Shown one piece after another: positions 16,292 to 49,584 of a stretch of DNA of 64,000 nt. Made by a program: the position numbers and the translations under genes. Position 1 is the first letter of the stretch. Every line of letters begins with the position of its first letter. The notes beneath the pieces are model-generated. The model had not been told where the DNA came from and did no database searches. It worked only from the letters and a program-made list of their open reading frames with translations. The DNA is from Acidobacteriota bacterium (GTDB lineage: Bacteria > Acidobacteriota > UBA6911 > RPQK01 > JAJDTT01): assembly GCA_965263035.1 (NCBI GenBank), contig OZ253580.1:3840001-3904000 (forward strand). The letters run 5' to 3'.

Positions 16292-16714
16292 TCAAACCGT
16301 GCCGCCCGGAGTCGGGTGTTGGACACTGGACCGGCCCCGGTGGACTTCCGGCGGCTCGCCCTCCAGGTAGGTGGTTCCCTGGAAGGGGTCCTTGACGGGA
16401 AAGAAGGCGATGATCCGGGCCACGCCGGGACCGACGTTGGTGAACCCGTGGGGTGTGCGGGCGGGCACGACGACGGTGTGATCGGGACCGACCCGATGGG
16501 TCTCGGAGCCCAGGCGAAACTCCAAGGTCCCCTCCTGGACCACGATGAACTCCTCGGCCTCGTGAAAGTGGAGCGGCGCCCCCGACCCCGTCCCTACCAG
16601 GGCCCAGGAAACGCTGCTGGTGGTGGTTCCGTCTCCGTCGCGAGTGATGTCGAAACTTCGGTAGTTGGGTCTCCAAGGCTTCTCGGGCAGGCTGGCGTGC
16701 TCTACTATGGGCAT
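16292..16714 (-). CDS. Cupin domain protein
   Basis: PLHFHEAEE and VPARTPHGFTN cupin motifs. Confidence 0.85.
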   Translation of the reverse strand: MPIVEHASLPEKPWRPNYRSFDITRDGDGTTTSSVSWALVGTGSGAPLHFHEAEEFIVVQEGTLEFRLGSETHRVGPDHTVVVPARTPHGFTNVGPGVARIIAFFPVKDPFQGTTYLEGEPPEVHRGRSSVQHPTPGGTV

Positions 16715-16779
16715 GGGGCTTGGCTCCCTTTCGAATTCTGGGATTGTAGCCGACCCGCCGCTGGAAAAGAATCCACCGC

Positions 16780-18369
16780 ATGTTTCCAACTGCCGCCGGT
16801 AACTTGGTCGACTGCCTGTTGGACCACCGGGTGCGCCATCTGTTCACCCTGTCGGGAAACCAGATCCTCTCCCTCTACGACGCCACCATCGGCCGGGACT
16901 TGGAACTGATCCACACCCGCCACGAGGCGGCCGCGGTGCACATGGCTGATGCTTGGGGCCGGTTGCAGGAAACTCCAGGGGTCGCCGTAGTGACGGCGGG
17001 ACCGGGGCACTGCAACGCCATCGGTGCTCTCTACGTGGCGCGCCAGGCCGAGTCGCCTCTGGTCCTCATCAGCGGACACTCGCCCTTGAGTCAGTCAGGG
17101 AAGGGCGCCTTCCAGGAGATGGACCAGGTGGCCATCGCCGCTCCCGTGACCAAGGCATCCTGGCGGGTCGACGCTCCCGAGCGGGCGGGGGCCATCCTGG
17201 ATCAGGCTCTGAAACTGGCCGGATCGGGGAGGCCGGGGCCGGTTCATATCAGCGTCCCCAGCGACGTTCTGGCTGCGGAAGTAGAATCCCAGGTGAACGT
17301 CAGCCCGCAGCCGGACCCGGCTGAATTCCTCAGGGAGGAAGAGGCGGGGCAGGTCCTGCGGCTTCTGGCCGGAGCCCGGCGTCCTCTCATCCTGGCCGGT
17401 GCTGCCATGTCGCGGCCGCTTCGGTGGCGGTCGATCATGGAACTCGCCAGCGCCTGCGGTGCGCCGCCTCTCAAGATGGAGAGTCCCCGGGGAGTCAACG
17501 ACCCTCGACTCTACGGGGCGTCTCGACTGTTGGGCCGTGCCGACTTGGTGCTGCTGCTGGGGAAGGAACTGGACTTCGCCCTCCGGTTCGGGGGTCCCCC
17601 CTTCGCAGCCGATAGCAGATTCGTCAGCATCGACTCGCATGAGAGCCGAGCGCCGGCCCATCCCAGGATGGTGCTGAGTCTGCGGGCTGACCCTGCCGCG
17701 GCAGCCTCGGAACTGGCCCGCCGTTCGCAAACAGATGGCGCTTCTTTCGATTCCTGGCGCCGCGCCGTCGAGTCGGCCCGTTCCGAAACGCCCGCTGAGT
17801 GGGAACATTGGCGGCGGGCCATGCGGAGTCCCATCCATCCTCTCCGGGTCTGCGAAGGCCTCCGGCCTTTCTTGGCGGACGGTGCCGTGGTGGTGAGCGA
17901 CGGAGGCGAGTTCGGCCAATGGGCACAGGCCGGGCTGGACTCCCGGGTGAACCTGATCAACGGCCCTTCGGGCGCCATAGGAAGCGCCATCCCCATGGCC
18001 CTGGCCTGCAAGCTGGCCCGTCCCGGACAGCCGGTCTTCGCGCTGCTGGGAGACGGAACCTTCGGATACCACGCCCTGGAATTCGATACGGCCCTTCGTT
18101 ACCGGCTACCGATCGTCGCCGTCGTGGGCAACGACGCCCGCTGGAATGCCGAATACCAGCTCCAATTGGACCACTACGGACCAGAGCGAACCGTGGGCTG
18201 CGAGCTTCTCCCCACCCGTTATGACCAAGTGGTCGAGGCTCTGGGCGGCCACGGAGAGTGGGTTTCGGAGCCGTCGCAACTTGAGCCGGCGCTGGAAAGG
18301 GCCCTCGATTCAGGCCTTCCCGCCTGCGTGAACGTCGCCGTCGAGGGCGTGAAAGCTCCCACGTTCTGA
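16780..18369 (+). CDS. Thiamine-diphosphate-binding enzyme (acetolactate synthase / acyl-CoA lyase-like)
   Basis: RHEAAAVHMADAW, TAGPG, GRPGPV, GDGTFG..VVGND. Confidence 0.93.
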   Translation: MFPTAAGNLVDCLLDHRVRHLFTLSGNQILSLYDATIGRDLELIHTRHEAAAVHMADAWGRLQETPGVAVVTAGPGHCNAIGALYVARQAESPLVLISGHSPLSQSGKGAFQEMDQVAIAAPVTKASWRVDAPERAGAILDQALKLAGSGRPGPVHISVPSDVLAAEVESQVNVSPQPDPAEFLREEEAGQVLRLLAGARRPLILAGAAMSRPLRWRSIMELASACGAPPLKMESPRGVNDPRLYGASRLLGRADLVLLLGKELDFALRFGGPPFAADSRFVSIDSHESRAPAHPRMVLSLRADPAAAASELARRSQTDGASFDSWRRAVESARSETPAEWEHWRRAMRSPIHPLRVCEGLRPFLADGAVVVSDGGEFGQWAQAGLDSRVNLINGPSGAIGSAIPMALACKLARPGQPVFALLGDGTFGYHALEFDTALRYRLPIVAVVGNDARWNAEYQLQLDHYGPERTVGCELLPTRYDQVVEALGGHGEWVSEPSQLEPALERALDSGLPACVNVAVEGVKAPTF

Positions 18370-28730: not shown

Positions 28731-28888
28731 CAGTCCGTGGTGAAAGTCCCGTGAGCACCGAGACCGGTCCTGCGCCCGCCGGACCAGGCGCGATGAGGGT
28801 GCATACCGGGAGTATGTGACCGGGTCGCAACGCAGTCCGCCGGGATGCAGGGACGGTCGAATGCCGCGAGGACTTTTACCACGGGCTG
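28731..28888. mobile_element. MITE family C, copy 1
   Basis: TIRs CAGTCCGTGGTGAAAGTC / GACTTTTACCACGGGCTG; internal hairpin CATAC-CGGGA-GTATG; second copy at 48152-48308. Confidence 0.88.
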
Positions 28889-34538: not shown

Positions 34539-35720
34539 ATGCGGTTCATCGACGGCATTCCGGTGTGGGGCGATCCCCAGGAGAACGCCGTTCTTCAGAT
34601 GAAGAATTGCGCCGGGGAGGCGGAGAGTTGCGCCCTGATGGCGGACCACCATCTGGGTTATGCCGTTCCCATCGGCGGAGTCGTCGCTTACCAGGGCCGC
34701 GTCAGCCCTTCGGGCGTCGGGTTCGACATCGCCTGCGGCAACAAGGCGGTCCGTCTCGACTGCGATCACGGGGACATCCGGAAGAACATCCCATCCATCA
34801 TGGATGAGATCTGGAAGTCCCTCTCCTTCGGTGTGGGCCGGGTCAACCGGAAGCCCGTCGACCACGACCTCTTCTACGACGATCCGGCCTGGAAGATTCC
34901 GGTGGCGGAGCGCCTGAAACCGGTCGCCAGAAAACAACTGGGCACCATCGGCAGCGGCAACCACTATGTCGACCTCTTCTCGGACGAGCAGGAGCGGATC
35001 TGGGCCGGAGTGCACTTCGGGTCCCGCGGTTTGGGCCACAAGCTGGCCACTTACTTCATCAAGGCCGGGGGCGGCAGGAACGGGATGCACGTGGACCCGG
35101 TGCTGCTGGACGTGGAGACCGAACTGGGGGCCGAATACGTGGCGTGCATGAAGCTGGCGGGCCGCTATGCCTACGCGGGACGGGATTGGGTCTGCGAAAC
35201 GGTCGCTGCCATTCTGGGAGCGGAGGTCCTGGAAGAAGTCCACAATCACCACAATTTCGCCTGGGAAGAAGAGCATGACGGCCGCCGGTTGTGGGTGGTG
35301 CGAAAGGGCGCCACGCCCGCCTTTCCCGGACAGAAAGGGTTCGTCGGGGGTTCCATGGGCGACCGCTCCGTGATCCTGGAAGGAGTCGACTCGAAAGAGA
35401 GCAAGAAAGCCCTCTATTCCACCGTCCACGGCGCCGGCCGGGTCATGTCCCGGACCCGTGCCGCCGGCAAGACCCGATTCAGGAAGGGGAAGCGGGTCCG
35501 CATCTCGGCGGGCGAAATCAGCCGGGACATGATGTTGGCTTGGATCCGCGGCATGGGAGTGGAGCTCCGCGGGGCCGGCCCCGACGAATCTCCCCACTGT
35601 TACAAACGGCTGCCCAATGTCCTGGAAGCGCACCGGGGCACCATCAGGATCCTGCACACGCTCGACCCCATCGGCGTGGCCATGGCCGCCGCGGGCGAGT
35701 TCGACCCCTACCGGGATTGA
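34539..35720 (+). CDS. rtcB: RtcB family RNA ligase
   Basis: ADHHLGY, VGFDIACG, LGTIGSGNHY, HFGSRG, NHHN, RKGAT, HGAGR, DESP..YK. Confidence 0.95.
   Translation: MRFIDGIPVWGDPQENAVLQMKNCAGEAESCALMADHHLGYAVPIGGVVAYQGRVSPSGVGFDIACGNKAVRLDCDHGDIRKNIPSIMDEIWKSLSFGVGRVNRKPVDHDLFYDDPAWKIPVAERLKPVARKQLGTIGSGNHYVDLFSDEQERIWAGVHFGSRGLGHKLATYFIKAGGGRNGMHVDPVLLDVETELGAEYVACMKLAGRYAYAGRDWVCETVAAILGAEVLEEVHNHHNFAWEEEHDGRRLWVVRKGATPAFPGQKGFVGGSMGDRSVILEGVDSKESKKALYSTVHGAGRVMSRTRAAGKTRFRKGKRVRISAGEISRDMMLAWIRGMGVELRGAGPDESPHCYKRLPNVLEAHRGTIRILHTLDPIGVAMAAAGEFDPYRD
35562..35720 (+). repeat. Left direct repeat (attL-like): last 159 bp of rtcB
   Basis: Matches 47945-48103 with 11 mismatches by manual alignment. 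Confidence 0.93.
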
Positions 35721-35869
35721 ATCGGCGGCTTCATCCGGGACGCCGTCTGCCGGACGTTCCGGTGGAACTCTCCCACCTTGTATTCTTCAGGCCGGGCCGC
35801 CATCGCCTACGCCCCATCCTGATCCGACGAGTTTCGAGACCGGCGTCGGACGACGTGTTACATTTGGGC

Positions 35870-36340
35870 ATGAAACACAGCGAGTTCATGAGCGTCATGT
35901 GGCGGGTGGCGGATCTGGTGCGGGACACCTTCAAGCGCGGTAATTACCTGAACGTCATCCTGGAGCTCACGGTTGTACTCCGTCGGCTCGAATGCGTGCT
36001 GGCTCGCACCAAGCCGAAGGTGTTGGCCGTCCACGCCAAGTACCGGGGCAGGATTGAGAACCTCCGGAGGCAGCTTCGGCGGGACTTGGTGTTCGGGTTC
36101 TACATCACGTCGCGCTACAACTTCGCGAAGCTCCTCGCCGACGCCCCCGAGATCGCTCAGAACCTGCGCCACTACATCGTCGGGTTCGGCGTTAACATGC
36201 GGGAGATGCCGGAGGAGTTCGACTTCGACGACACGGTCTTGAAGTTCGACGAGGCGGGTCTTCCGTTCCAAGTGGTGGAGTGGTTCGGCATTTCGAAGGT
36301 CTTGCCCCCTCCACTCCCGATCTCCAAGCCCACTTACTGA
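35870..36340 (+). pseudogene. hsdM: Degenerate N-terminal fragment of a second type I HsdM
   Basis: WRVADLVRDTFKRG.Y..VILELTVVLRRLECVLARTK resembles HsdM_N; ends before any methyltransferase motif. Confidence 0.75.
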
Positions 36341-36347
36341 TCCAGCC

Positions 36348-36728
36348 ATGCCCCTCCGAAAATCCCACCTCTACTCCTCGCTCTGGCAGAGTTGCGACCA
36401 ACTGCGCGGCGGCATGGACGCGTCCCAGTACAAGGACTACGTCCTCACGCTGCTGTTCATGAAGTACGTCTCGGACAAGTACGCGGGGAAAGACGATCCC
36501 TATGCCGACATCAACGTGCCGCCCGGGGGAAGCTTCGCCGACATGGTGGCGCTGAAGGGAACCAAGGATATCGGCGATGGGATCAACGTAGCCATCCGCA
36601 AACTCGCTGACGCCAACGGCTATCTGCTTAAGGGCGTGATCGATCAGACCGACTTCCTCGACGAGAGCAAGCTCGGCAAGGGCAAGGAGATGCAGGAGCG
36701 CCTATCGAAGCTCGTGGGGATCTTCTAG
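36348..36728 (+). pseudogene. hsdM: Type I RM HsdM, 5' part (interrupted by IS)
   Basis: LWQSCDQLRGGMDASQYKDYVL..LFMKYVSD; stops at the CTAG insertion site. Confidence 0.92.
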
Positions 36729-38799
36729 CCCGAGTTTACCGTATTGGAGATCAGGATAAAGATAAGTTGTTTTTTTGCAAAGAGATAGGGCAGGTGTCCC
36801 GTATGACCTACGGAGCCGCATCAAGGGGTCGGATGGCGTGTTTTTCGAGTCCCAGGACTTCGTACATCGTGCGCTGTTCGTCCGTCATCTGCGAGAGCGT
36901 CGTCCGGAGTTCGGGCTCGCCGCCCTCCTCCCGCGCTGGATACAGCACGTCGACTTCGCGGATCCCGCTGAGCGCGTCCAGCAGCGCGGGGATCGAATCC
37001 TGCACGCCGTGGCGGCTCAGTTCCCGCTGCAGCAGGCCGCACAGCAGCAGCGCCAGCACGCAGCAGAACACATGCACCGCGATCTTCTGGTCCGTCCAGT
37101 GGTATTGTGGCCGGATGGCGATGCAGTTGCTGTCCTTGAGCTGCCGGAAGGCGCTCTCGACATGATGTTGCGCGCGGTAGCCGCGCACCAGCTCGGCGTC
37201 GCTCCAGCCCGCCTGGTCGGTGAACAGCAGGGTCTTGCCCAGTAACGTGCGCTGAAGCTGCTCCCAGGCGCGCCGCTGGAAGCGATAATTCACCTTCGGC
37301 AAGCCGTCCACCTCACGCACCTGAACGGCGAACAGGTCCCGCATGTGCCGGGCCCGCAGCCAGCCGTCGACCTTCTTGCGCGTGCCGGCCAGGCTCGGCT
37401 TGCGTCCCCCCCGGATCTTGCCCTCGCGCCAGCGCCGCAACTGCCACTGCAGGGCGCGCAGGTGCTGGCGCCGCTTAGCGATCTCGCGCAGCAGCGTCCG
37501 ACATTGGGCGTCGAACAGCGCTTGGTTCCAAGTCACCAGCACCGTGCGCTGGACGCCGAACACTTTGGACTCGGTGCGGTAGGAGCGCACGCCGGCCAGC
37601 CCGTCGGCCTCCAGCGAGCGCATCTGGTCCGCAGGCACGGCCAGCAGGTGCGGATGCTGGGTGGGGACCAGCGAGCCGATGAAGTGGAACGGGCTGCGCT
37701 CGACCCAGTCCAAGTTCGGGCGCGAGTTGTTGCCCTTGTCGAAGACCAGGGTGACCGTCTCGGTCCCGGCGGCGATCTCCCGGTAGCGCCGGGCCAAGTC
37801 GGCGGCGAGGCTTTGGAACGTTGGCGCGTCGGGGCGGTTGCCGGGATAGGTGCGATGCAGCAGGGGCAGGCGGAAGTCGGCCGTGACCAGCAGGGCCACG
37901 CCGATGATGCGCAACGACCTGCGGCCCTCCTTGCTGTGACCGCGCTGAGCCAGTTGGGAGCGCTGGTTGAAGGAATTGATGTAGGTAAAGAAGTGGGTGG
38001 CGTCAAACAGCACTTGGCCCAGGTCGAGGCGGAACTCGCGGGTCATGGCGGCAACGATGTCGCGTTCAATGGCGGGTAGGGCGGGGACGGGGACGCGGTG
38101 CATATGGTCCCAGAAGCGCTGGCTGGTGAGCTGGTTGGAGCGCAGGGGGAGCAGGCGGCGCAGGGCGGTGGAGTCGAACCAACGGGCGAGGCTGGCCTTG
38201 GAGCCGGGGGCGAGGCAGCGGTTGAGGACGGCGGCGAGCAAGTAGGTGCCGACGGAGGGACCGGAGCCGCGCTTCGGGAGATGGCGGTCGATGTGCTCGA
38301 CCAACTGCAAGCGGCGGGCGAGGGTAAGCAGGGCGGCCGAGGCCCCGAATTCGCGCACGACCGCCTCGAGCGGCTGGGCGGGGGCGGGGGCGGCGCGGAG
38401 CTTCTCGATGATCTTGTCGGCGCGACCGAGATAGGTCTGGGAGACGATCTTGGGTTTGCCGTCGACGCGCTTGCAGACGCGGGCGTAGTAGTAGGGGCGG
38501 CCCCGGATGATCTTCTTGACGAGGCTGGCCATATATTTAGGTCATACAATAGCGTATGGATCCGACCGATGTCAAGCGAGTTATCCGTAAAAACTTCATT
38601 TATAGATGGAATAATAGTTCTGGAGAAGACCTGACAAATCCCACCATATATTAGGCCATACAAAAATCAATGGGACGAGAGCAAGGGCCTCGGCCGGGCT
38701 GGGTGATAAACCCTTCCTTATCAATAACTTGAATCTGAATCGTCGGTCTGCCCACGCGCTAGGGCAATGCTATGCTGGTGCGAACACGGTAAAGTCGAG
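36729..38799 (-). mobile_element. IS1634-family insertion sequence
   Basis: Imperfect TIRs CCCGAGTTTACCGT / ACGGTAAAGTCGAG; CTAG duplicated at 36725-36728 and 38800-38803. Confidence 0.9.
36808..38532 (-). CDS. IS1634-family DDE transposase
   Basis: RPYYYA..RVDGKPKIVSQTYLG, FDAT, FDKG, Y..QHHVESAFRQLK, RPQYHW. Confidence 0.92.
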   Translation of the reverse strand: MASLVKKIIRGRPYYYARVCKRVDGKPKIVSQTYLGRADKIIEKLRAAPAPAQPLEAVVREFGASAALLTLARRLQLVEHIDRHLPKRGSGPSVGTYLLAAVLNRCLAPGSKASLARWFDSTALRRLLPLRSNQLTSQRFWDHMHRVPVPALPAIERDIVAAMTREFRLDLGQVLFDATHFFTYINSFNQRSQLAQRGHSKEGRRSLRIIGVALLVTADFRLPLLHRTYPGNRPDAPTFQSLAADLARRYREIAAGTETVTLVFDKGNNSRPNLDWVERSPFHFIGSLVPTQHPHLLAVPADQMRSLEADGLAGVRSYRTESKVFGVQRTVLVTWNQALFDAQCRTLLREIAKRRQHLRALQWQLRRWREGKIRGGRKPSLAGTRKKVDGWLRARHMRDLFAVQVREVDGLPKVNYRFQRRAWEQLQRTLLGKTLLFTDQAGWSDAELVRGYRAQHHVESAFRQLKDSNCIAIRPQYHWTDQKIAVHVFCCVLALLLCGLLQRELSRHGVQDSIPALLDALSGIREVDVLYPAREEGGEPELRTTLSQMTDEQRTMYEVLGLEKHAIRPLDAAP

Positions 38800-38803
38800 C
38801 TAG

Positions 38804-40843
38804 GGGCTCGATTTTCGCGCCAACCGTGCCCACGGCGACGACCTCCTTGGCGACGCGTATGAGTATCTCATGCGGCACTTCGCGACCCAGTCGGGCAAGA
38901 GCAAGGGACAGTTCTACACCCCGGCTGAAGTCTCCCGCATCATGGCCCAGGTGATCGGGATCGGCCCGGACACCAAGCGGCGCCACACCGTGTACGATCC
39001 GACCTGCGGCTCCGGGTCGCTCCTCATCAAGGCGGCCGACGAGGCGTCGAACGGGCTGACCATCTACGGGCAGGAGATGGACGTCGCGACGTGGATGATG
39101 GCGCGCATTAACATGATCCTTCACGGACGCGTGGCCGCCGAGATCAAACGCGACAACACCCTCGCGGCCCCCCAATTTACGGACGGCCCGGAACGGCTCA
39201 CGCGGTTCGACTTCGCCGTCGCCAATCCCCCGTTCTCAATGAAGGCCTGGTCGAACGGCCTCGATCCGGCCCATGACGAATTCCGCCGCTTCGAGTACGG
39301 CGTCCCTCCGGCCAAGAACGGAGACTATGCCTTCCTGCTGCACCTCATCGCGTCGCTCAACAGCACCGGCAAGGGTGCAATCATCATGCCGCACGGGATC
39401 CTCTTCCGGGGCAACCGCGAGGCCGGCATCCGCCGCAATCTCGTCCAGCGCGGCCTGATCAAGGGAATCATCGGGCTGCCCGCCAACCTCTTCTACGGTA
39501 CCGGAATCCCGGCGTGCATCGTGGTGATCGACAAGGAGAGTGCGGTGGGGCGCCGCGGCATCTTCATGATCGACGCCAGCAAGGCCTTCCGGAAGGACGG
39601 AGCCAGGAACCGGCTTCGGGAACGCGACATTCACCGGATCGTGGATGTCTTCAACGGACAGAAGGAGACACTCGGATACGCGCGTATGGTGCCGCTGGCC
39701 GAGATCGCCAGCGAAGTCAACGACTACAACCTCAACATCCCCCGCTACATCGACTCCAGCGAACCCGAGGAGCTGCACGACCTGAGCGCGCACCTGCACG
39801 GTGGGATCCCGAACCGGGATATCTACGCCCTTGGCGCCTACTGGAAGGTGTTCCCGGCGTTGCGGCATCGGCTCTTCTCGCCGAACGGCCGGGAGGGGTA
39901 CAGCGACGCGCAGGTTCAAGCGGACGAGGTGAGATCAGTCGTCCTCGAACACGAGGAGTTCAAGGTATATGGGGACCGGGTGAGCCGGGTGTTTGATGGC
40001 TGGAGGCAGGAGCATGCGCCGCGCCTTCGGGCGCTTGCGGAAGGCGATTCCCCCAAGGCGCTGATCCGCGACCTATCGGAGGACCTGCTGAGCCGCTTCG
40101 CCGGTCTCCCGCTTCTCGACCGCTACGATGTCTACCAGTGCCTGATGGACTACTGGGACGAGGTCATACAGGACGACGTGTACTTGGTGGTGACGGGGGA
40201 GTGGGCGGACGCCGCGCGGCCTCGTGTGCTGGTGCCGGTTCGGGGCAAGGGTGCCGCGGTGCCGCCCGACCTGAAGGTGAACCGCAAGAAGTACAGGATG
40301 GATCTAGTCCCTCCAGGGCTGGTCGTCGCCCGGCACTTTGCAACGGAGCAGGCCGTCGCCCGGGAGCTGGAGGAGTTTATCGAAGAACATGGCAGTGAAG
40401 ACGGGCTGCTGGACGGCGCGACGACCGATGCTGGGAAGGTGACGCAAGCCGCGGTGAAGAAGCGGCTGAAGGAGGTGGTCGACGATCCTGAAGATCACGA
40501 GGAGCGTGACGCGTTGGAAGTGTGTCTTGAGTTGATCAAGGCGCACGGCGCCTCAAAGAAGGCCGTGAAGGCGGCGCAGACGAATCTGGATGAGAAGGTG
40601 CTCACGCGCTACACGACGCTGACCGCGGTGGAGATCGCCGAGCTCGTGGTTGACGACAAGTGGATAGCGAGCGTCGAGGGCGCGATCGGACGGGAGGTGG
40701 AACGCCTGACGGGTGGGCTGGTGGATCGGGTCAGGGTGCTGGAAAGGCGGTACGCGAAGCCGCTGCCTGAGCTTGCGCGTCAAGTTGGGGAGTTCGGTGC
40801 GAAGGTCGAGGGCCACCTGGAGCGGATGGGATTGTCGGTATGA
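38804..40843 (+). pseudogene. hsdM: Type I RM HsdM, 3' part
   Basis: Resumes GLDFRANRAHGDDLLGDAYEYL; GQFYTP, YDPTCGSG, NPPF (N6-adenine methyltransferase), YNLNIPRY. Confidence 0.93.
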
Positions 40844-41154
40844 GCCGGCTATTCGATTTTGAGCGGCTGGTGGAGCTGTGTCATGAGCGCCTCCTCTCCA
40901 AAGTCTCAGTACGGACGATTTCCGCAAATCTGTTGCGGATTTCCAGCAACCGGTCGATTCCGCAGACGGTGTCTGCGGAATCCCGTGAGGCGTCAGAGAT
41001 TCGACAGACGATGCCCGTCGAAACTCTTTCGCCAAGCCCGATGAGTGAGGCACCCAGTCTACTGAAGTTGAGCGAGCAGTTTCTCAAGGAAGGAACGTGT
41101 TCAAACCGCGAGGGTCCGCCAGGAGATCGGAAGAGGCGAGAGGGACACCCATGA
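40840..41154 (+). pseudogene. Probable remnant of a YhcG/DUF1016-like gene
   Basis: MSRLFDFERLVELC and QTVSAES..IRQT..LSEQF resemble the DUF1016 N-terminus and linker; coupled to the hsdM stop and hsdS start. Confidence 0.45.
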
Positions 41155-42431
41155 ATGTGGGGCAGGCGGTCAGAGATGCCCATGCACCGGAGGGTGCAGG
41201 CAACCCGCCGGATGTCCCGGCGGGGTACAAGCACACTGATGTGGGGGTGATTCCAGAGGATTGGGAGGTGGACAGAATCGATCAACATACGTTCATCAAG
41301 ACTGGCTCAAGGAATACGCAAGACAAGCGAGAGGGTGGAGAGTATCCGTTCTTTGTGCGATCTCAGGAAGTCGAGCGCATCGGCACCTATTCGTACGATG
41401 GCGAAGCCGTGCTGACGGCGGGTGATGGAGTCGGAACCGGAAAGGTGTTCCACTACGTCCGTGGCCGGTTTGACGTCTATCAACGGGTCTATCGGATTTC
41501 CGATTTTTCGGATTGGCTCGATGGGCTCTACTTCTTTTTCCAGTTCAGTGAGAGGTTTTACCGCCGCATCATGTCCATGACAGCGAAGTCTTCCGTCGAT
41601 TCCGTTCGGATGGAGATGATCGCGGGTATGAGGATTCCACTGCCGCCACCCTCCGAACAGCGCGCCATCGCCGCCGTCCTATCCGATGTTGACGAGCTGA
41701 TCGGATCGTTGGAAGCGCTGATCGCCAAGAAGCGGGCCACCAAGAAGGCCGCGATGCAGCAACTTCTGACGGGCAGGACGCGACTCCCGGGATTCAGCGG
41801 GAAATATGAGGCGCGACGGATCAACGAACTCGCTGACGTGGATCCCGAGAATCTACCCAGCGATACAGACCCAGGTTTCTTCTTCAACTACATTTCGCTG
41901 GATCACGTCGATGGTGGTCGACTAATTGGCTATTCAAGGGAGTCATTCGCGACCGCCCCGTCGCGCGCACGACGGGTACTGCGGGCCAGTGATGTACTTA
42001 TGTCAACAGTCCGGCCAGGTTTGCAGGGACACCTGATATTTGTCGACCAAGTGCCCAACGCCGTTTGCTCGACTGGGTTTGCAGTCCTTCGTTCAAAGCG
42101 AGACCGATGCGACCCTCGGTTCTTGTTTGCCCATTTGTTTGGCGATGTAGTGAGCGCTCAAGTGCAGAAGCTCCTTGCTGGCTCGAACTACCCCGCGGTC
42201 AACAGCGGTGATGTTGGCAGGCTTAGGGTCCCCTGTCCTCCTACTCTCCCCGAACAACGAGCCATCGCCACCGTCCTCTTCGACATGGACGCCGAGATCG
42301 TCGCGCTGGAGCGCCGACTCGACAAGACCCGCGCGATCAAGCAGGGGATGATGCAGCAGTTACTCACCGGTTCCATGAGGCTGCCCATCCCCGACGCCAA
42401 TACGGAAGACGACGACGCCCATGACGCCTGA
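41151..42431 (+). CDS. hsdS: Type I RM specificity subunit
   Basis: GVIPEDW, two target recognition domains each followed by EQRAIA..MQQLLTG conserved regions; lower GC. Confidence 0.95.
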   Translation: MNVGQAVRDAHAPEGAGNPPDVPAGYKHTDVGVIPEDWEVDRIDQHTFIKTGSRNTQDKREGGEYPFFVRSQEVERIGTYSYDGEAVLTAGDGVGTGKVFHYVRGRFDVYQRVYRISDFSDWLDGLYFFFQFSERFYRRIMSMTAKSSVDSVRMEMIAGMRIPLPPPSEQRAIAAVLSDVDELIGSLEALIAKKRATKKAAMQQLLTGRTRLPGFSGKYEARRINELADVDPENLPSDTDPGFFFNYISLDHVDGGRLIGYSRESFATAPSRARRVLRASDVLMSTVRPGLQGHLIFVDQVPNAVCSTGFAVLRSKRDRCDPRFLFAHLFGDVVSAQVQKLLAGSNYPAVNSGDVGRLRVPCPPTLPEQRAIATVLFDMDAEIVALERRLDKTRAIKQGMMQQLLTGSMRLPIPDANTEDDDAHDA

Positions 42432-43956
42432 GTCCCAGAACGTCGAGTGGAAGTCGTCCTGGCGGGACGAGTACCTGAAGTGGATCTGCGGTTTCGCCAA
42501 CGCCCAGGGCGGCGTCCTCGAGATCGGCCGGAACGACTGCGGCGAGGTCGTTGGGATCAGCGACGTTCTGCGCCTGCTCGAGGAGATTCCCAACAAGGCG
42601 CAGTCTCTCCTCGGCATCGTTGTCGATGTCGACCTGAAATCGGAGCACGGACGCGAGTACCTGCAGATCGCCGTCAAGCCCCATCCCAACCCGATCAGCT
42701 ATCGGGGCAAGTTCCACTATCGGTCCGGGAGTACAAGCCAGGTTCTTCGGGGCGCCTCGCTCACGCGCTTCCTGCTGGAACGGCAAGGGCGGACATGGGA
42801 CGACGGGGCGATGCCGGGGGTCCGCATGCGCGACTTGGACGGACACACGCTGGATGACTTCCGGGAACGCGCTTCCGTCAGCGGCCGCCTGAACCAGAAC
42901 ATTCTCCGCGCATCGGACTCCGAGGTCATCGAGAAGTTGCGCCTTCGCGAGGGCCGGCACCTGAAGCGCGCTGCCGTCCTGCTCTTCCACCCGGAGCCGG
43001 GCACCTTCTTTCGGGAAGCCTATCTCAAGATCGGGTACTTTCGCGGCGCCGACATCATCTACCAGGATGCGGTCGAAGGCGACCTCTTCTCCCAGGTCGA
43101 GCGTGCCATGGACCTGCTCTACTCCAAGTACTCGCGCGCTCTGATTTCGTACGATGGCGTTTACCGGGTCGAGACTCACCCCGTGCCCTACGAGGCCATG
43201 CGCGAAGCGGTCACAAACGCGGTCATCCATCGCGACTACGCAGTCCCCGTACCCATTCAGATCCGTGTCTATGACGACCGTGTGGCCATCTGGAATGCGG
43301 GGCGGCTCCCGAGGGGGTGGTCGCTGGAGAACCTGACCGGGGAGCACGCGTCACGGCCGTACAACCCGGCGATCGCGGACGCTTTCTTTCGCGCAGGCCT
43401 GATCGAAGCCTGGGGTCGCGGGATCCACCGGATCAGGCAGGCCTGTGAGGAAGCGGGTAACCCGGTGCCCCGTTGGCGGATCGAGCCCGGCGACGGTCTG
43501 TGGGTCGAATTCCCGTTTTCTGCCGCGTACCTGGCCGCAGACGCCCGGTTGCGCCGAGCGGAGGAACAGCCAGAAAACCGCCAGAAAACCACCAGAAAAG
43601 ACGGTCAACCGCCAGAAAAAGGCCAGAAAACCGCCGGAGAAGACCGGGAAGAGGCGTCCAGGGAGCCTGAAGACCACCAGAAACGAGCAGGATCAGCCAG
43701 AAAACCGCCAGAAAACCAGTCCCTCTACGACCGTATCCTCGCGCTTCTCCGTCGGCAGCCATCCGTCAGCCGCCGCGAAATGGCCGCCACGCTCGGCACC
43801 ACCACGTCCACCGTCCGGTACCGGCTGGACAAGTTGCGAGCGGCCGGGAAGATAGAGCGGGTCGGCCCCGACAAGGGCGGGTACTGGAAGGTGCTGGGCG
43901 GGTCCGGCACCGATCGCGATCCTTCTCCCGAACCCGGCTCCGGGAGCGCCCGATGA
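42421..43956 (+). CDS. Schlafen/AlbA_2 domain + RecG-C-like (HATPase_c_4) + C-terminal HTH protein
   Basis: ESQNVEWK, GFANAQGG..IG..D; REAVTNAVIHRDY, NP.IA..F, IEAWGRG; HTH ending R.GPDKGGYW. Confidence 0.9.
   Translation: MTPESQNVEWKSSWRDEYLKWICGFANAQGGVLEIGRNDCGEVVGISDVLRLLEEIPNKAQSLLGIVVDVDLKSEHGREYLQIAVKPHPNPISYRGKFHYRSGSTSQVLRGASLTRFLLERQGRTWDDGAMPGVRMRDLDGHTLDDFRERASVSGRLNQNILRASDSEVIEKLRLREGRHLKRAAVLLFHPEPGTFFREAYLKIGYFRGADIIYQDAVEGDLFSQVERAMDLLYSKYSRALISYDGVYRVETHPVPYEAMREAVTNAVIHRDYAVPVPIQIRVYDDRVAIWNAGRLPRGWSLENLTGEHASRPYNPAIADAFFRAGLIEAWGRGIHRIRQACEEAGNPVPRWRIEPGDGLWVEFPFSAAYLAADARLRRAEEQPENRQKTTRKDGQPPEKGQKTAGEDREEASREPEDHQKRAGSARKPPENQSLYDRILALLRRQPSVSRREMAATLGTTTSTVRYRLDKLRAAGKIERVGPDKGGYWKVLGGSGTDRDPSPEPGSGSAR
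43570..43717 (+). repeat. 11-bp tandem repeats (GCCAGAAAACC consensus) in the AlbA_2 gene linker
   Basis: Units at 43570, 43581, 43592, 43611, 43622, 43696 and 43707. Confidence 0.8.
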
Positions 43957-46900
43957 CTCCCGTCGGCGAGATCGAGGCTCGTACTCAACGCCGGGTCATT
44001 GACCACTTCCAGAACCACCTCGGCTACAAGTACCTGGGCAACTGGCACGACCGCCAGAATCGGAACATCGAAGCCGACTATCTCAGGAGATTTCTCGCGG
44101 ACCAGGGTCACGACCCCGCCATCATTTCCAAAGCGCTGGACAAACTGGACAAGGCCGCCGCTCTCGGCGGGGGCCGAACGCTCTACGGCGCCAACCGCGA
44201 CGTCTACGGTCTGCTCCGCTATGGTGCGAGAGTCCGTCCCGGACTCGGCGAACAGACGGTCACCGTCAACCTGATCGACTGGAAGGACCCGGCCGCCAAT
44301 GACTTCGCCATCGCCGAAGAAGTCACGGTGGAGGGCAACAACACCAAGCGGCCCGACATCGTGGTCTACGTCAACGGGATCGCTGTCGGGATGCTCGAAC
44401 TCAAGCGCTCGACCGTCTCGGTGGCGGAGGGGATCCGCCAGAATCTGGTCAACCAGAAGAGGGAATTCATCCGGCCGTTCTTCACCACCGTACAGCTCGT
44501 CATGGCGGGTAACGACACCGAAGGACTGCGCTACGGCGTGATCGGGACACCGGAGAAGCACTGGCTCCAGTGGAAGGAAGCCGGTACTGCTGCCCCCGAC
44601 ACCCCCACCTCCGCCCTCCTTCGCGAACTCGGCCACCTCTGCGTCCCCAATCGTCTGCTCGAACTCATCCACGATTTCGTGGTCTTCGACGCGGGCGTCA
44701 AGAAGATCTGCCGTCACAATCAGTACTTCGGCGTGAAGGCGGCCCGGGAGTACGTCCGCCGCCGCGAAGGCGGGATCATTTGGCACACTCAGGGCAGCGG
44801 GAAGAGCCTCACGATGGTGTGGCTGGCGAAGTGGATCCGTGAGCTCAAGGGAATTGATGGCCGCGTGCTCATCGTCACCGACCGCACCGAGCTCGACGAG
44901 CAGATCGAGATGGTGTTCAAGGGTGTGGACGAGGACATCTATCGCACGAGCAGCGGGGCCGATCTGGCCCAGGTCCTGCAGGGCGCCGACAAATCGCTGA
45001 TCTGTTCGCTCGTCCACAAGTTCGGCAGCTCCAAGGACGGAAACGTCGACCGCTACGTGGACGACCTCCGGGCCCACATGTCACGCGGTTTCCGGGCCGG
45101 GGGCGAGATCTTCGTCTTCGTGGACGAGTGTCACCGCACCCAGTCCGGCAAGCTGCACAAGGCCATGAAGGCGATCCTCCCCGGCGCCACGCTGATCGGC
45201 TTCACTGGAACGCCGCTCCTGAAGTCCGACAAGCAGCGTAGCATCGAGACTTTCGGCCCATACATCCACACCTACAAGTACGACGAGGCGGTAGGTGACA
45301 AGGTGGTTCTGGACCTGCGCTACGAGGCGCGCGACATCGACCAGAACATCACCTCGGAGGCGAAGATCGACCAGTGGTTCGACATCAAGACGAAGGGGCT
45401 CAGCGACCTGGCCCGCGCGCAGCTAAGGCAGAAGTGGGGCACCATGCGCAAGGTCACGAGCTCGCTCGACCGCATCCGAAAGATCGTGGACGACATCCTG
45501 ATCGACATGGAGACCCGGGACCGCCTGCAGAGCGGCCGAGGAAACGCCATGCTCGTATCCGACAGTGTCTACGCAGCCTGCCGCTTCTTCGAGGCGTTCA
45601 ATGGGACCGGGCTGAAGGGCAAGTGCGCCATCGTCACCTCCTACAGCCCGACGACACGGGACATCACGGGAGAGGAGACGGGCGAGGGCCTCACCGAGCG
45701 GTTGCTCAAGTACGATGTCTATCGAAATATGCTCGCGGACTATTTCGGCGAGCCCGCAGACAAGGCGATGCACAAGGCCGAGCAGTTCGAGCAGGAGGTC
45801 AAGAGGCGCTTCGTGAACGAGCCGGGGCAGATGAAGCTCCTGATCGTCGTGGACAAGCTGCTGACCGGCTTCGATGCGCCTCCGGCGACCTATCTCTACA
45901 TCGACAAGAAGATGCAGGATCACGGTCTCTTCCAGGCGATCTGCCGCGTCAACCGCCTGGACAGCGAGGACAAGGAGTACGGCTACATCATCGACTACAA
46001 GGACCTCTTCCGCTCGCTGGAGGGCGCGATCCAGGACTACACCGGCGAAGCGTTCGAGGGTTATGACCGGGAGGACGTGGAAGGCTTGTTGAAGGACCGC
46101 CTTGAACGGGGACGGGAGCGGTTGGAGGAAACCCGCGAGGCGGTGAAGGCGCTGTGCGAACCGGTCGAGCCGTCTCGCGACACGGAAGCGTACCTGCGCT
46201 ACTTCTGTCACGGCGGAACGGGTGACACGGCCCGGCAGCTTGCCGCCAACGAACGGAAGCGCCTCATGCTGTACAGGATGGTGGCGGCTTTCCTGCGCGC
46301 CTACGCCAACTTGGCCAACGAGATGATCGAGGCGGGTTACACGGAGGCCGAGCGACTCGAAATCAGGCACGAGGTGAGCCACTACGAAAAGGTTCGCCAG
46401 GAGGTCAAACTGGCCAGCGGCGACTACGTCGATCTCAAGATGTTCGAGCCCGCCATGCGGCACCTCCTCGACAACTACATCCGGGCCGACGACAGCAAGG
46501 TTCTTTCCGCGTTCAACGATTTGACGCTCGTAGACCTGCTCATCAAGGACGGGGAGAGCGCCGTCGATTCGCTTCCCGAAGGGATCCGGCGCAGCCACCG
46601 CGCCGTTGCCGAGACGATCGAGAACAACGTCCGCCGCCTGATCGTCGACGAGATGGCCGTGAATCCCAAGTATTACGAAAAGATGTCGGCGGTGCTCGAT
46701 GCGCTGATCAAACAGCGCAGGGAGGAAGCGATCGAGTACGAGGCGTACCTCAAGAAGGTCATCGAGCTCGCCGAAAAGGTGAGGGGCGGCGAAGCCGGTG
46801 GTTCACATCCGGCGAGCATCAACAACGGGGGACTGCGCGCAATTTACGACAATCTACCGGCCGAATTGCCGGCAGATCGCGTGGCCGAGCCGGGCGCGAG

Positions 46901-47105
46901 GTGGGAGCCGGATACCGGGACCGATCCCCGCGAAGTCGCGGCGCTGGCTGTCGATCGCGCAATCCAACAGGCCCGGATGGCCGATTGGCGTGGCCACCCC
47001 ATCAAGGAGAAGCGGATCGGCAGGGCGATCCGTGACGCACTCGGGCCCTTCAAGGCTTACACGAACACGATCTGCGGAATTGTGAAGGCCCGCAGTGAGT
47101 ACTGA
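43953..47105 (+). CDS. hsdR: Type I RM restriction subunit
   Basis: RPD..ELK nuclease motif, WHTQGSGKS, DECHR, FTGTP, LTGFD, QAICRVNR. Confidence 0.97.
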   Translation: MTPVGEIEARTQRRVIDHFQNHLGYKYLGNWHDRQNRNIEADYLRRFLADQGHDPAIISKALDKLDKAAALGGGRTLYGANRDVYGLLRYGARVRPGLGEQTVTVNLIDWKDPAANDFAIAEEVTVEGNNTKRPDIVVYVNGIAVGMLELKRSTVSVAEGIRQNLVNQKREFIRPFFTTVQLVMAGNDTEGLRYGVIGTPEKHWLQWKEAGTAAPDTPTSALLRELGHLCVPNRLLELIHDFVVFDAGVKKICRHNQYFGVKAAREYVRRREGGIIWHTQGSGKSLTMVWLAKWIRELKGIDGRVLIVTDRTELDEQIEMVFKGVDEDIYRTSSGADLAQVLQGADKSLICSLVHKFGSSKDGNVDRYVDDLRAHMSRGFRAGGEIFVFVDECHRTQSGKLHKAMKAILPGATLIGFTGTPLLKSDKQRSIETFGPYIHTYKYDEAVGDKVVLDLRYEARDIDQNITSEAKIDQWFDIKTKGLSDLARAQLRQKWGTMRKVTSSLDRIRKIVDDILIDMETRDRLQSGRGNAMLVSDSVYAACRFFEAFNGTGLKGKCAIVTSYSPTTRDITGEETGEGLTERLLKYDVYRNMLADYFGEPADKAMHKAEQFEQEVKRRFVNEPGQMKLLIVVDKLLTGFDAPPATYLYIDKKMQDHGLFQAICRVNRLDSEDKEYGYIIDYKDLFRSLEGAIQDYTGEAFEGYDREDVEGLLKDRLERGRERLEETREAVKALCEPVEPSRDTEAYLRYFCHGGTGDTARQLAANERKRLMLYRMVAAFLRAYANLANEMIEAGYTEAERLEIRHEVSHYEKVRQEVKLASGDYVDLKMFEPAMRHLLDNYIRADDSKVLSAFNDLTLVDLLIKDGESAVDSLPEGIRRSHRAVAETIENNVRRLIVDEMAVNPKYYEKMSAVLDALIKQRREEAIEYEAYLKKVIELAEKVRGGEAGGSHPASINNGGLRAIYDNLPAELPADRVAEPGARWEPDTGTDPREVAALAVDRAIQQARMADWRGHPIKEKRIGRAIRDALGPFKAYTNTICGIVKARSEY

Positions 47106-47838
47106 CAGGTACCACATGGATGTCAGCGGCATTCCCGTGGCAGTCATCCGCAAGGACATCAAGAACCTCCACCTGAGCGTCTATCCCCCCGAGGGCGAAG
47201 TACGCGTCTCGGCTCCGCTGCGCCTCGACGACGAAGCGATACGGCTGGCGGTGGTTTCGCGCCTGGGATGGATTCGGCGCAAACGTGCCGAGTTCGAGCA
47301 GCAAGACCGCCAATCCCGGCGCGACTTCGTGTCCGGTGAGAGTCACTACTTCGAGGGACGACGCTATCGTCTGGATGTGGTTGAATCGAGAGGCCCGGTC
47401 GGTATTCGCCTGCGCAACAATGCCTGGATGGAGATGCGCGTGCGCCCCGCCACCGGCCGCGACGCCCGCGAGGCCCTGCTCTACCGATGGTACCGGGCTC
47501 AGCTACGACAGCGCATCCCCGAGATGGTCGCCAAGTGGGAATCCCGGATCGGCGTGGATGTGGCCGACTGGCGCATCCGCCGCATGAAGACACGCTGGGG
47601 AAGCTGCAATGCCGGGGCTTGCCGCATCTGGCTCAACTCCGAGCTGGCCAAGAAGCCCCTGCCCTGCCTCGAATACGTCGTCGTCCACGAGATGGCCCAC
47701 CTCGCCGAACCGAGCCACAACGAGCGTTTCCGGGAGATCCTGGACCGCGTAATGCCGAGTTGGCGCCTGCGCGCCGAAGAGTTGAATCGCACTCATCTTG
47801 CCGACGAAGTCTGGGGGGAATTGCTGCCTGTCAGGTAA
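47095..47838 (+). CDS. YgjP/DUF45 (SprT-like) metallopeptidase associated with type I RM
   Basis: MKTRWGSC, YVVVHEMAHL, H..RF. Confidence 0.92.
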   Translation: MSTDRYHMDVSGIPVAVIRKDIKNLHLSVYPPEGEVRVSAPLRLDDEAIRLAVVSRLGWIRRKRAEFEQQDRQSRRDFVSGESHYFEGRRYRLDVVESRGPVGIRLRNNAWMEMRVRPATGRDAREALLYRWYRAQLRQRIPEMVAKWESRIGVDVADWRIRRMKTRWGSCNAGACRIWLNSELAKKPLPCLEYVVVHEMAHLAEPSHNERFREILDRVMPSWRLRAEELNRTHLADEVWGELLPVR

Positions 47839-47944
47839 CTCCGGGGCGAGCTGGATTCATCGTTCGGGGACAATAGGGGGAAAGGGATAACTCGCGACGG
47901 TTTGGAAAACTCCTCCCTCTAAGCGGGTACTCCGGGAGCACGTC

Positions 47945-48103
47945 GAGCTCCGCGGGGCCGGAACCGACGAATCTCCCCACTGTTACAAACGGCTGCCTGA
48001 AGTTCTGGAAGCGCATCGGGGCACCATCAGGATCCTGCACACGCTCGACCCCATCGGCGTGGCCATGGCCGGCGCGGACGAGTTCGATCCCTTCCGGGAT
48101 TGA
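47945..48103 (+). repeat. Right direct repeat (attR-like): displaced rtcB 3' end
   Basis: Encodes ELRGAGTDESPHCYKRLPEVLEAHRGTIRILHTLDPIGVAMAGADEFDPFRD-stop, with no start codon. Confidence 0.93.
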
Positions 48104-48151
48104 AGCGCCGGCGCCGATCGAGACGCCGCTTGCCGGGTCGTTAGTGTGTAA

Positions 48152-48308
48152 CAGTCCGTGGTGAAAGTCTCGCGAGCACCGAGACCGTTCCTGCGCCCGC
48201 CGGACAAGGCGCGATTCGGGAGCATACCGGGAGTATGTGAGAGATTACAACGCAGTCCGCCGGGATGCAGGGACGGTCGAATGCCGCGACGACTTTTGCC
48301 ACGGGCTG
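48152..48308. mobile_element. MITE family C, copy 2
   Basis: Same TIRs and internal hairpin as 28731-28888. Confidence 0.88.
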
Positions 48309-48381
48309 GTAACTCTCTCCCTTGTATTCTTGCAGCCGGGGCGGTAGTAAACTGGGCGGAGACCCGGGAAGGGGGTGTGCG

Positions 48382-49584
48382 ATGAGACGACTGCTGCTAT
48401 GGGTTGTGAGTGTGGCATGGTTGCTGGAACCGATCCACGCGGCCGGCTGGGAGCGTGTCCAGGTCAAGATCGGCGAGACGGTCAATATCGTTCCCCAAGG
48501 CACGCGGCTGGCCCGGGGCATGCTGGGAATCATACGACATCCCGACGGGTCCATCTTCGTGAACACCCAGACCGGGGGTCTGGCCCGAAGCCGGGACCAA
48601 GGGAAGACCTGGAGCCTGATCCCAGCAGAGAAGGCCTTTGCCCTGGGTGTCAGCCGCGACGGACGGCTCTGGTTGGCGGACGGCGTCAAGGACGCCTCCC
48701 AGTTGGAGGTGCGCCACTCCTCCGACTCGGGCGAGACTTGGACCACGACGGCGCTCGACGTCTCCGATCTCTCCCCGGAATCGAGCCGGCGGCCTTACAA
48801 CTGGACCGGCGACGACTACAACACATTCATCGAGCGGCCCGACGGGACCCTCATGTTCTCGGCCGGTCTGCGGCGACTCCCCTGGTTTTACGAGGATCCG
48901 TCCCTGATGGAGGATGGACTGGTCTCGCCCGACGCCGACGTGGGCGGCCTCTTCCTGTTCCGGAGCCGCGATGGCGGCAAGAGTTGGGGCGAACCGAGCC
49001 TGGTGCATGAGTTTGCCTCCGAGGTGGGCTATGCCGTCGATCCCGCAGACTCGGACCGCATCCTGGCCATGACCCGGATCCAGAGGCCTCTACTGGCGGG
49101 CGAGGATAGGTCGGAGACGCTGAAGAAGACGGGCGCCCCGGCCAGCACCGAGTCCAACATGCCCTCCATCTACAAGAACGGCCTGCTATTGGAATCGCGC
49201 GACGGCGGCCGCACCTTCGCCGAGGTTCCGGGAGGGCTCACCGGATTCTACGAGATTCGCGGGACCATCCTCTGGACGGCGGACAACCGGGTGGTGGTGA
49301 CCCATCAGGGGGCCCACCCGGGTGGAGGCCCGGACGGAACCCTGCTGGCCAGAATCAGTCTCGACGGCGGCCGGCGCTGGCTCGACGGCACGGCAACCGG
49401 GACAACGGCTATGAGCCAATCCCGAAAATTCGTGCTGGTCCCCAGGCCCCCCGGACATTCCTTCACGGCACCCAGCGTGCAGATCTCCGAAAATCGCTTT
49501 CTGAGCGTCTATTTTCACGGAAACCTGAGCCGGAACATCGCCATGGTCAGTGGTGTTTTCTGGCGTTTGGAGCACCTTCCGTGA
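48382..49584 (+). CDS. Exported sialidase-like BNR/Asp-box protein
   Basis: Signal peptide; SRDQGKTW, SSDSGETW, SRDGGKSW, SRDGGRTF, SLDGGRRW. Confidence 0.88.
   Translation: MRRLLLWVVSVAWLLEPIHAAGWERVQVKIGETVNIVPQGTRLARGMLGIIRHPDGSIFVNTQTGGLARSRDQGKTWSLIPAEKAFALGVSRDGRLWLADGVKDASQLEVRHSSDSGETWTTTALDVSDLSPESSRRPYNWTGDDYNTFIERPDGTLMFSAGLRRLPWFYEDPSLMEDGLVSPDADVGGLFLFRSRDGGKSWGEPSLVHEFASEVGYAVDPADSDRILAMTRIQRPLLAGEDRSETLKKTGAPASTESNMPSIYKNGLLLESRDGGRTFAEVPGGLTGFYEIRGTILWTADNRVVVTHQGAHPGGGPDGTLLARISLDGGRRWLDGTATGTTAMSQSRKFVLVPRPPGHSFTAPSVQISENRFLSVYFHGNLSRNIAMVSGVFWRLEHLP

Follow-up and report, generated by a model that had tools for sequence, protein, structure and literature searches.

Among described systems, those closest to the locus considered here, a type I restriction–modification (R-M) operon at the 3′ end of the RNA ligase gene rtcB in an Acidobacteriota genome, are the R-M insertions with long target duplication. 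The screen of Furuta, Abe and Kobayashi (2010; PMC2853133) delimits these, in its stated criteria, by R and M genes within the insert, an insert of less than 20 kb, a repeat of more than 30 bp that aligns with another genome and no other mobile element; the cases that it lists include type I systems, with repeats from 46 to about 420 bp, some of which reach a few bases into the 3′ end of a gene. The prophage e14 in icd of E. coli K-12, which leaves the C-terminal pseudogene icdC according to the description of this element in PMC13626634, and the islands with P4-type integrases in tRNA genes provide further points of reference. Our locus lies in a window of 64 kb, positions 3840001–3904000 of contig C1 of the studied genome (G000), which is a single contig of 6.2 Mb, and was compared with eight further genomes of the same genus (G001–G008).

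The locus has each of the properties by which Furuta's screen, in its working criteria, recognises an R-M insertion with long target duplication (PMC2853133). R and M genes lie inside the insert (hsdM, hsdS and hsdR, by Pfam and PADLOC), which spans 12.1 kb; the repeat is about 241 bp long and occurs as a single copy in the island-free relatives G001 and G004; and no other mobility gene explains the insertion, the sole transposase belonging to an insertion sequence (IS) specific to G000. It is a further case of a known pattern of R-M entry, and neither a new kind of element nor an attachment site in general use. With moderate confidence, we favour the explanation that an operon some 10 kb in size inserted into the end of rtcB, duplicating about 241 bp of target and bringing no recombinase of its own. 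Like the cases listed in PMC2853133, the locus combines R and M genes and the lack of a recombinase with long direct repeats that align to one insert-free copy. Unlike those listed, its duplication includes 159 bp of the coding sequence of a conserved gene, and the event is old (at least six species), the copies having diverged to 67–93% identity. Given this age and divergence, both copies may, but need not, derive from the target.

The likeness to e14 in icd is one of layout, in that an insert occupies the 3′ end of a protein-coding gene that nevertheless remains complete, with a piece of its C terminus standing at the far end. However, e14 carries an integrase and is excised upon SOS induction, whereas no recombinase is present here, and the expressed tail at icd is derived from the element, whereas that of our rtcB is the usual tail of its lineage (for e14, as outlined in PMC13626634). 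With the tRNA-gene islands that have P4-type integrases, the locus shares direct repeats taken from the end of the target, and the same operon family is found beside such an integrase at another locus (L065); it differs in its protein-coding target, its 241-bp repeat and the absence of an integrase.

The two ends of the insert are defined by a two-copy direct repeat, which a repeat search places at 35559–35753 and 47942–48136 (195 nt, 89% identity, spacing 12,383 bp) and whose left edge is sharp in pairwise alignment, at GAGCTCCGCGG. The coding parts, 35562–35720 and 47945–48103, differ at 11 of 159 bases and the translated tails at five residues (left/right P/T, N/E, A/G, G/D and Y/F), with the motif DESPHCYK in both; the first-pass annotation, which had reported a second copy of the final 159 bp of rtcB 12.4 kb further on, differing by 11 nucleotides and five amino acids, was correct in every number. 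The repeated segment has two copies only in the whole 6.2-Mb genome and is therefore not a dispersed repeat. Comparison with the island-free relatives shows that the true duplicated target is about 241 bp long (35559–35799) and consists of the rtcB tail, the stop codon and 82 bp of spacer. Homology to G001 and G004 continues until 35799 on the left; on the right it runs from 47941 to 48152 and resumes at 48309, past a 156-bp miniature inverted-repeat transposable element (MITE). The features at the ends of the insert are as follows.

34539–35720, plus strand: rtcB, 393 amino acids, intact (PF01139, E 8.5e-64), its final 159 bp within the left repeat
35559–35799, plus strand: left copy of the duplicated target, rtcB tail and about 82 bp of spacer; homology to G001 and G004 ends at 35799
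35761–35777, plus strand: terminator-like hairpin GGTGG..CCACC followed by a T-rich tail, in the left copy
47942–48152, plus strand: right copy, first part, the silent rtcB tail (47945–48103) and spacer
48309–48345, plus strand: right copy, last part, continuing into the upstream region of the BNR gene
48322–49584, plus strand: BNR-repeat gene, the native downstream neighbour of rtcB, directly after rtcB in G001 and G004

RtcB is a full-length member of PF01139, with an intact C terminus that includes the DESPHCYK tail, and is collinear with its relatives over residues 1–393, over which it is 92–94% identical in amino-acid sequence in seven same-genus genomes. At the DNA level, a search for the rtcB locus across 41 genomes gave 90–94% identity in seven of the eight same-genus genomes. 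Terminator-like hairpins are more frequent in the region than expected (two found, 0.4 expected), and the GGTGG/CCACC stem is kept in all five left copies aligned, while neither the right copies nor G001 or G004 have it. From this arrangement, the insertion would appear to leave rtcB and the BNR gene each with signals of its own, the left hairpin for the former and the right-hand upstream region for the latter.

We compared 20 kb around six same-genus rtcB loci with the window, and searched G006 and G008 with the locus sequence. The empty site predicted by the first-pass annotation, rtcB followed directly by the BNR gene, is present in two of the eight genomes, G001 and G004; both have a single copy of the duplicated segment, in line with its view that a segment flanked by a duplication was inserted into the end of rtcB. 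G002, a different species with an independent assembly, still has the left and the right copy on either side of a heavily eroded operon, and its tail-only second rtcB match comes with the same right-hand junction and the same 100-bp cargo end as in G000. That the second rtcB tail is a mis-join, an artefact which the first-pass annotation had named as fatal to its proposal, is next to inconceivable, given this junction in G002, copies that differ at 11 of 159 bases and, for G000, a genome that forms a single 6.2-Mb contig. In G003, G006 and G007 the operon is present and the right copy is gone, with a common junction from 47841 to 48308 that joins two GTAACTC microhomologies in the alignment. 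In G005 the operon is eroded, and the deletion on the right is a different one. The operon without the right copy is thus the state of four of the eight genomes, formally the very situation (an R-M locus with no duplication) that the first-pass annotation had held would refute it, but the junctions in these genomes look like secondary deletions of the right copy. The rtcB contig of G008 ends shortly after rtcB, 19 bases past the left-type hairpin, and searching the rest of the assembly, which is 90% complete, revealed no trace of the operon or of the BNR gene.

No integrase or resolvase accompanies the operon in G000 or in the four relatives' islands that were scanned. Six-frame searches with PF00589 (integrase) and PF00239 (resolvase) across the 64-kb window returned nothing, in agreement with the first-pass statement that no integrase lies inside the island, and the nearest integrase is about 157 kb away. 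Pfam scans of the islands of G002, G003, G005 and G007 (38 open reading frames, ORFs) likewise revealed no recombinase domain. An exact search with 32 nt of the cargo end had no match in metagenome contigs and none in viral contigs, and base composition gives no clear foreign signal, the G+C fraction being 0.55–0.70 in the island and 0.63–0.66 in the flanks. A 30-nt inverted repeat at 42231/47857 (80%) was taken as background, since the 18-kb region has seven comparable pairs.

We infer that events may have taken the following course. The operon, consisting of hsdM, hsdS, an AlbA_2/HATPase_c_4 gene, hsdR and a ygjP-like gene, would have entered the chromosome of an ancestor of the genus at a point 159 bp before the rtcB stop codon, and its entry would have been accompanied by duplication of the target over about 241 bp (the rtcB tail with its stop codon, and 82 bp of spacer). 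At the present locus, rtcB is kept whole by the left copy, which also supplies the terminator-like hairpin, while the right copy retains the upstream region of the BNR gene, its rtcB part persisting as a silent relic. Only decay and reshuffling have followed, the right copy being deleted in four species and the operon eroded in two; in G000, an IS has split hsdM and a MITE has landed in the right repeat.

The first-pass annotation had further proposed that the expressed RtcB carries an island-derived C terminus, and this the relatives do not support. The expressed (left) tail ends AMAAAGEFDPYRD, exactly as in G001, G004 and G008, in which no island is detectable; across the genus, every functional tail has this ending or a close variant of it. 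Both silent right copies, in G000 and G002, end AMAGADEFDPFRD; an element of the e14/icd type would be expected to have, at its far end, the native tail of the island-free relatives, and the fragment found there is AMAGADEFDPFRD in place of AMAAAGEFDPYRD. Among the outgroup genera, the first differing position is G in five of five, the second D in three and N in two of five, and the third Y in three and F in one of the four that are readable, while P and N are private changes of the G000 left copy. The match of the outgroup residues to the right copy indicates that the silent copy retains older states and that the expressed copy is an ordinary tail of the genus. Within G002, the left and right copies are 84% identical over coding sequence and 67% over spacer; the corresponding values for G000 are 93% and 67%, and this level of divergence fits an old duplication. 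Three bases of the G000 left copy are in common with right copies and mostly lacking in other left copies, which is a weak hint of gene conversion.

The operon occupies the rtcB site in G000, G002, G003, G005, G006 and G007, which represent at least six species and which the trees of rpoB and gyrB distribute over the two sides of the root of the genus. With the sister genus as outgroup, rpoB (5,218 columns) and gyrB (2,450 columns) separate (G005,(G001,(G008,G004))) from a clade of G000, G002, G003, G006 and G007, whereas secA (2,017 columns) places G005 with the latter clade; trees of the flanks agree with the gene trees when both are taken as unrooted. By these trees, the operon goes back at least to the ancestor that G005 shares with the second clade. 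From the island-free G001 and G004 it may have been removed by a recombination of one repeat with the other. Such secondary loss is favoured by the left-type coding tails of the island-free genomes, combined with a spacer that is right-type in G001 (44 of 47 bases, 94%, against 30 of 46, 65%, for the left type) and mainly left-type in G004 (39 of 46, 85%, against 33 of 46, 72%, for the right type), a pattern that left–right recombination at different points would produce.

rtcB is not a general hotspot. Across 76 genomes of the order (G000, G002 and 74 further), tail-only extra rtcB matches occur in two, G000 and G002, both of this genus, and 80 metagenome rtcB loci, 51 of which have at least 1 kb of downstream sequence, yielded no tail duplicate among those 51. 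The closest metagenome relative of this RtcB reaches only 74% identity, and no additional member of the genus thus turned up in this set. The suggestion of the first-pass annotation that rtcB is an attachment site hence finds no recurrence in the 74 further genomes of the order or in the 51 metagenome loci, and the search that it recommended for other duplications of the rtcB 3′ end came back empty there. Among publication titles (on McrBC systems and actinobacteriophages), we found no description of rtcB as an attachment site. One metagenome rtcB, 74% identical (L175, 384–578 and 1863–2846), is interrupted at residue 66 by a stretch of about 1.3 kb.

The operon itself belongs to a family that is found well beyond the genus. 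We compared the best 80 of 581 HsdR-related loci, 79 of them outside the genus; the nearest outside HsdR proteins in this set are 79–83% identical and come from metagenome-assembled genomes (MAGs) labelled Longimicrobiales, Candidatus Palauibacter and Bryobacterales; G003 bears the label Acidobacteriota. At the DNA level the operon is 80–88% identical to outside loci from the start of hsdM (36346) to near the end of ygjP (47789), and the flanks, 35800–36345 and 47790–47941, are not common to these loci. The alignment of window positions 36346–47789 was made with L065, L045, L044, L087 and L099, from Gemmatimonadota or Bryobacterales MAGs. Such identity across phyla is about the closeness seen within the genus (81–86% for hsdM) and looks like cross-phylum exchange of the operon. 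None of the 79 outside-genus loci among these best 80 has rtcB near the operon. Among the 13 closest loci, L065 has a full P4-type integrase and L064 an integrase fragment at the contig end, while the others lie amid defence genes. In L065, the tyrosine integrase (16405–17691; Arm-DNA-bind_3, Phage_int_M and Phage_integrase) stands 2.5 kb past ygjP, with a second AlbA_2 gene between the two, and an IS110-family transposase lies upstream.

A second instance of the flanking-repeat pattern for the same operon family is apparent in L099, from a Candidatus Palauibacter MAG whose HsdR is 83% identical. Its operon is flanked by a 354-bp direct repeat of 94% identity (2843–3195 and 13901–14254), made up of tRNA-Arg(ccg), tRNA-Leu(cag) and the 5′ part of tRNA-Leu(gag). 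The ORFs scanned in this island include no integrase; it does contain an rve-family (IS3-like) transposase, and cases of that type are set aside by Furuta's screen as its criteria are given (PMC2853133). In a second Palauibacter MAG (L045, 13968–14428), the operon lies at the same tRNA cluster without a duplicate.

Several observations weigh against a target duplication as the origin of both repeat copies. A true target duplication starts with identical copies, whereas here the spacers are 67% identical and the right copies have outgroup-like residues (G and D), so that the left copy must have diverged later, unless one of the two is an import. The genus root, furthermore, depends on the gene used, and because the placement of G005 differs between the rpoB/gyrB and secA trees, the island-free state may be ancestral. 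The G004 spacer is a mosaic at the diagnostic sites, with no clean single switch, and ancestral polymorphism is a possible cause. Elsewhere the operon family travels with integrases, at two of the 13 closest loci (L065 and L064), and the long target duplication is a descriptive class without a proven mechanism. One alternative is an island comparable to e14 in icd, bringing its own copy of the rtcB tail, integrating site-specifically and later losing its integrase by deletion. Imperfect repeats over the 3′ end of a protein-coding gene are what icd and icdC form around e14 in the account of PMC13626634, the 33% difference between the spacer types would be explicable by an imported copy, the operon family has a P4-type integrase or a fragment of one beside it in L065 and L064, and the 100-bp cargo end (47842–47941) could be the residue of a lost module. 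We nevertheless consider this course unlikely, since no integrase domain is present in the four relatives' islands scanned with Pfam or in six frames of the window itself, and an element-derived left tail predicts right-type tails in island-free genomes, which is the case in none of three. The homology also runs 82 bp into the genus's own rtcB–BNR spacer, so that the donor would need to be a close relative, and the rtcB tail is duplicated in none of the 74 further genomes of the order or the 51 metagenome loci.

The other way to import a copy is by homologous recombination, in which circular or tandem DNA from a related species, carrying the operon with its own rtcB tail, would enter through a single Campbell-type crossover within the 241-bp homology. 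A long repeat that is homologous over both coding and non-coding parts suits this route, as do insertions and deletions that conflict with the species trees: the right-copy deletion is found in G003 and in G006/G007, not in the nearest kin G002 and G000, and the 272 bp at 36022–36293 are kept only in G000. The three right-copy bases in the G000 left copy, as a hint of gene conversion, and the 80–88% DNA identity with operons of Gemmatimonadota MAGs over the stretch between the start of hsdM and the end of ygjP, which indicates that the operon itself has been exchanged, point the same way. Yet the shared deletion could be recurrent, falling as it does between the GTAACTC microhomologies, and the three shared bases do not form one tract; the origin of the first flanked copy is left unexplained, and the circle is without direct evidence. 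We regard this import as quite improbable, and give equally little credit to its extension, by which the cassette could leave and re-enter along the same route.

Entry with a target duplication remains the explanation that we prefer, and under it the locus offers a natural example of an R-M operon entering the coding end of a conserved gene without harm to that gene. The nine related genomes form a rare series in time, from the island-free state through the full insert to loci that have lost the right repeat, have an eroded operon or were inactivated by an IS, and such a series is raw material both for the mechanism of long target duplication and for the question of how often long repeats later remove the insert. 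A more speculative view, which we think has a rather small chance of being right, is that the 241-bp repeats make the operon a reversible cassette independent of any recombinase, in which G001 and G004 would represent two exits by different crossovers and a circle could re-enter via the rtcB tail. Were this true, the end of rtcB would act as a homology-based attachment site for R-M exchange among sponge-associated Acidobacteriota, with the operon also present in Gemmatimonadota.

The insert, 35800–47941, comprises 12,142 bp, of which 2,073 bp are a later IS. Its cargo is one type I R-M operon, with hsdM, hsdS, the AlbA_2/HATPase_c_4 gene, hsdR and the ygjP-like gene; the first-pass view that everything between the repeats is defence cargo was too broad, as an older hsdM remnant and the IS that splits hsdM lie there as well. 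The features of the cargo and the later arrivals are listed below.

35897–36220, plus strand: older remnant of an hsdM 5′ end, HsdM_N-like, with no intact gene (PF12161, E 2.7e-11, residues 203–310 of ORF 35291–36340)
36348–36728, plus strand: first 126 codons of hsdM, cut by the IS (PF12161, E 2.3e-17; PADLOC MTase_I positions 1–122 of 810)
36729–38801, minus strand: IS1634-family insertion sequence, 2,073 bp, transposase at 36808–38532; a late arrival
38802–40843, plus strand: remainder of hsdM with the N6_Mtase domain, ORF from 38870 (PF02384, E 2.6e-90; PADLOC MTase_I positions 146–809 of 810)
40840–41154, plus strand: ORF of 104 amino acids without a family match; relatives have a DUF1016/YhcG nuclease gene at the same position
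41097–42431, plus strand: hsdS (PF01420; PADLOC Specificity_I, E 1.2e-74)
42421–43956, plus strand: AlbA_2 (Schlafen-like)/HATPase_c_4/winged helix-turn-helix (HTH) gene, a usual passenger of the operon, at the same position in related operons
43953–47105, plus strand: hsdR (PF18766, PF22679, PF04313; PADLOC REase_I, 1420 bits)
47095–47838, plus strand: ygjP-like metallopeptidase gene, the last of the operon (PF01863, E 3.3e-60)
47842–47941, plus strand: cargo end, 100 bp, common to G002 only; lost with the right repeat in G003, G006 and G007
48153–48308, no strand assigned: MITE, 156 bp, in the right repeat, flanked by GTAAC; absent here in G002, G001 and G004

In G000 the hsdS and hsdR reading frames are open and hsdM is split after codon 126, whereas hsdM is a single uninterrupted gene of 816 amino acids in G003 and G007. 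Type I enzymes depend on HsdM, so neither methylation nor restriction is expected, and as read from the genes the R-M system of G000 is very probably inactive. The responsible IS has six copies in the genome, three of them at 99.7% identity or more, all flanked by CTAG and with inverted ends of about 14 bp; it is absent from hsdM of the relatives. Its minus-strand ORF of 574 amino acids has no Pfam match of its own but thousands of homologues, many with PF01609, and one homologue at 90% identity is named as an IS1634 family transposase. At the IS break, the window reads TAG where G007 and L065 have GAG.

Within the hsdM-remnant region (35897–36293), the 272 bp at 36022–36293 that are kept in G000 are missing in G002, G003, G005 and G007, with a 7-nt overlap at the junction and a distribution at odds with the species trees. 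The charged linker of the AlbA_2/HATPase_c_4 protein, between its ATPase-like and HTH domains, is encoded in part by a tandem array with a period of 11 nt and 6.6 copies (43565–43644). The MITE of the right repeat has 188 BLAST matches in the genome, of which 161 are at least 140 nt long and 58 combine that length with at least 90% identity; a second copy in the window lies at 28732–28888, and the element is abundant in G006 and G008 too. Another MITE of this genome, with CTAG ends, is similar neither to this element nor to the IS. In G007 (L021, 13197–16571), downstream of the BNR gene, several MITE copies lie between jumbled, duplicated pieces, namely fragments of hsdR, a complete AlbA_2/HATPase_c_4 gene and a fusion of a GFO with a YhcG_C fragment.

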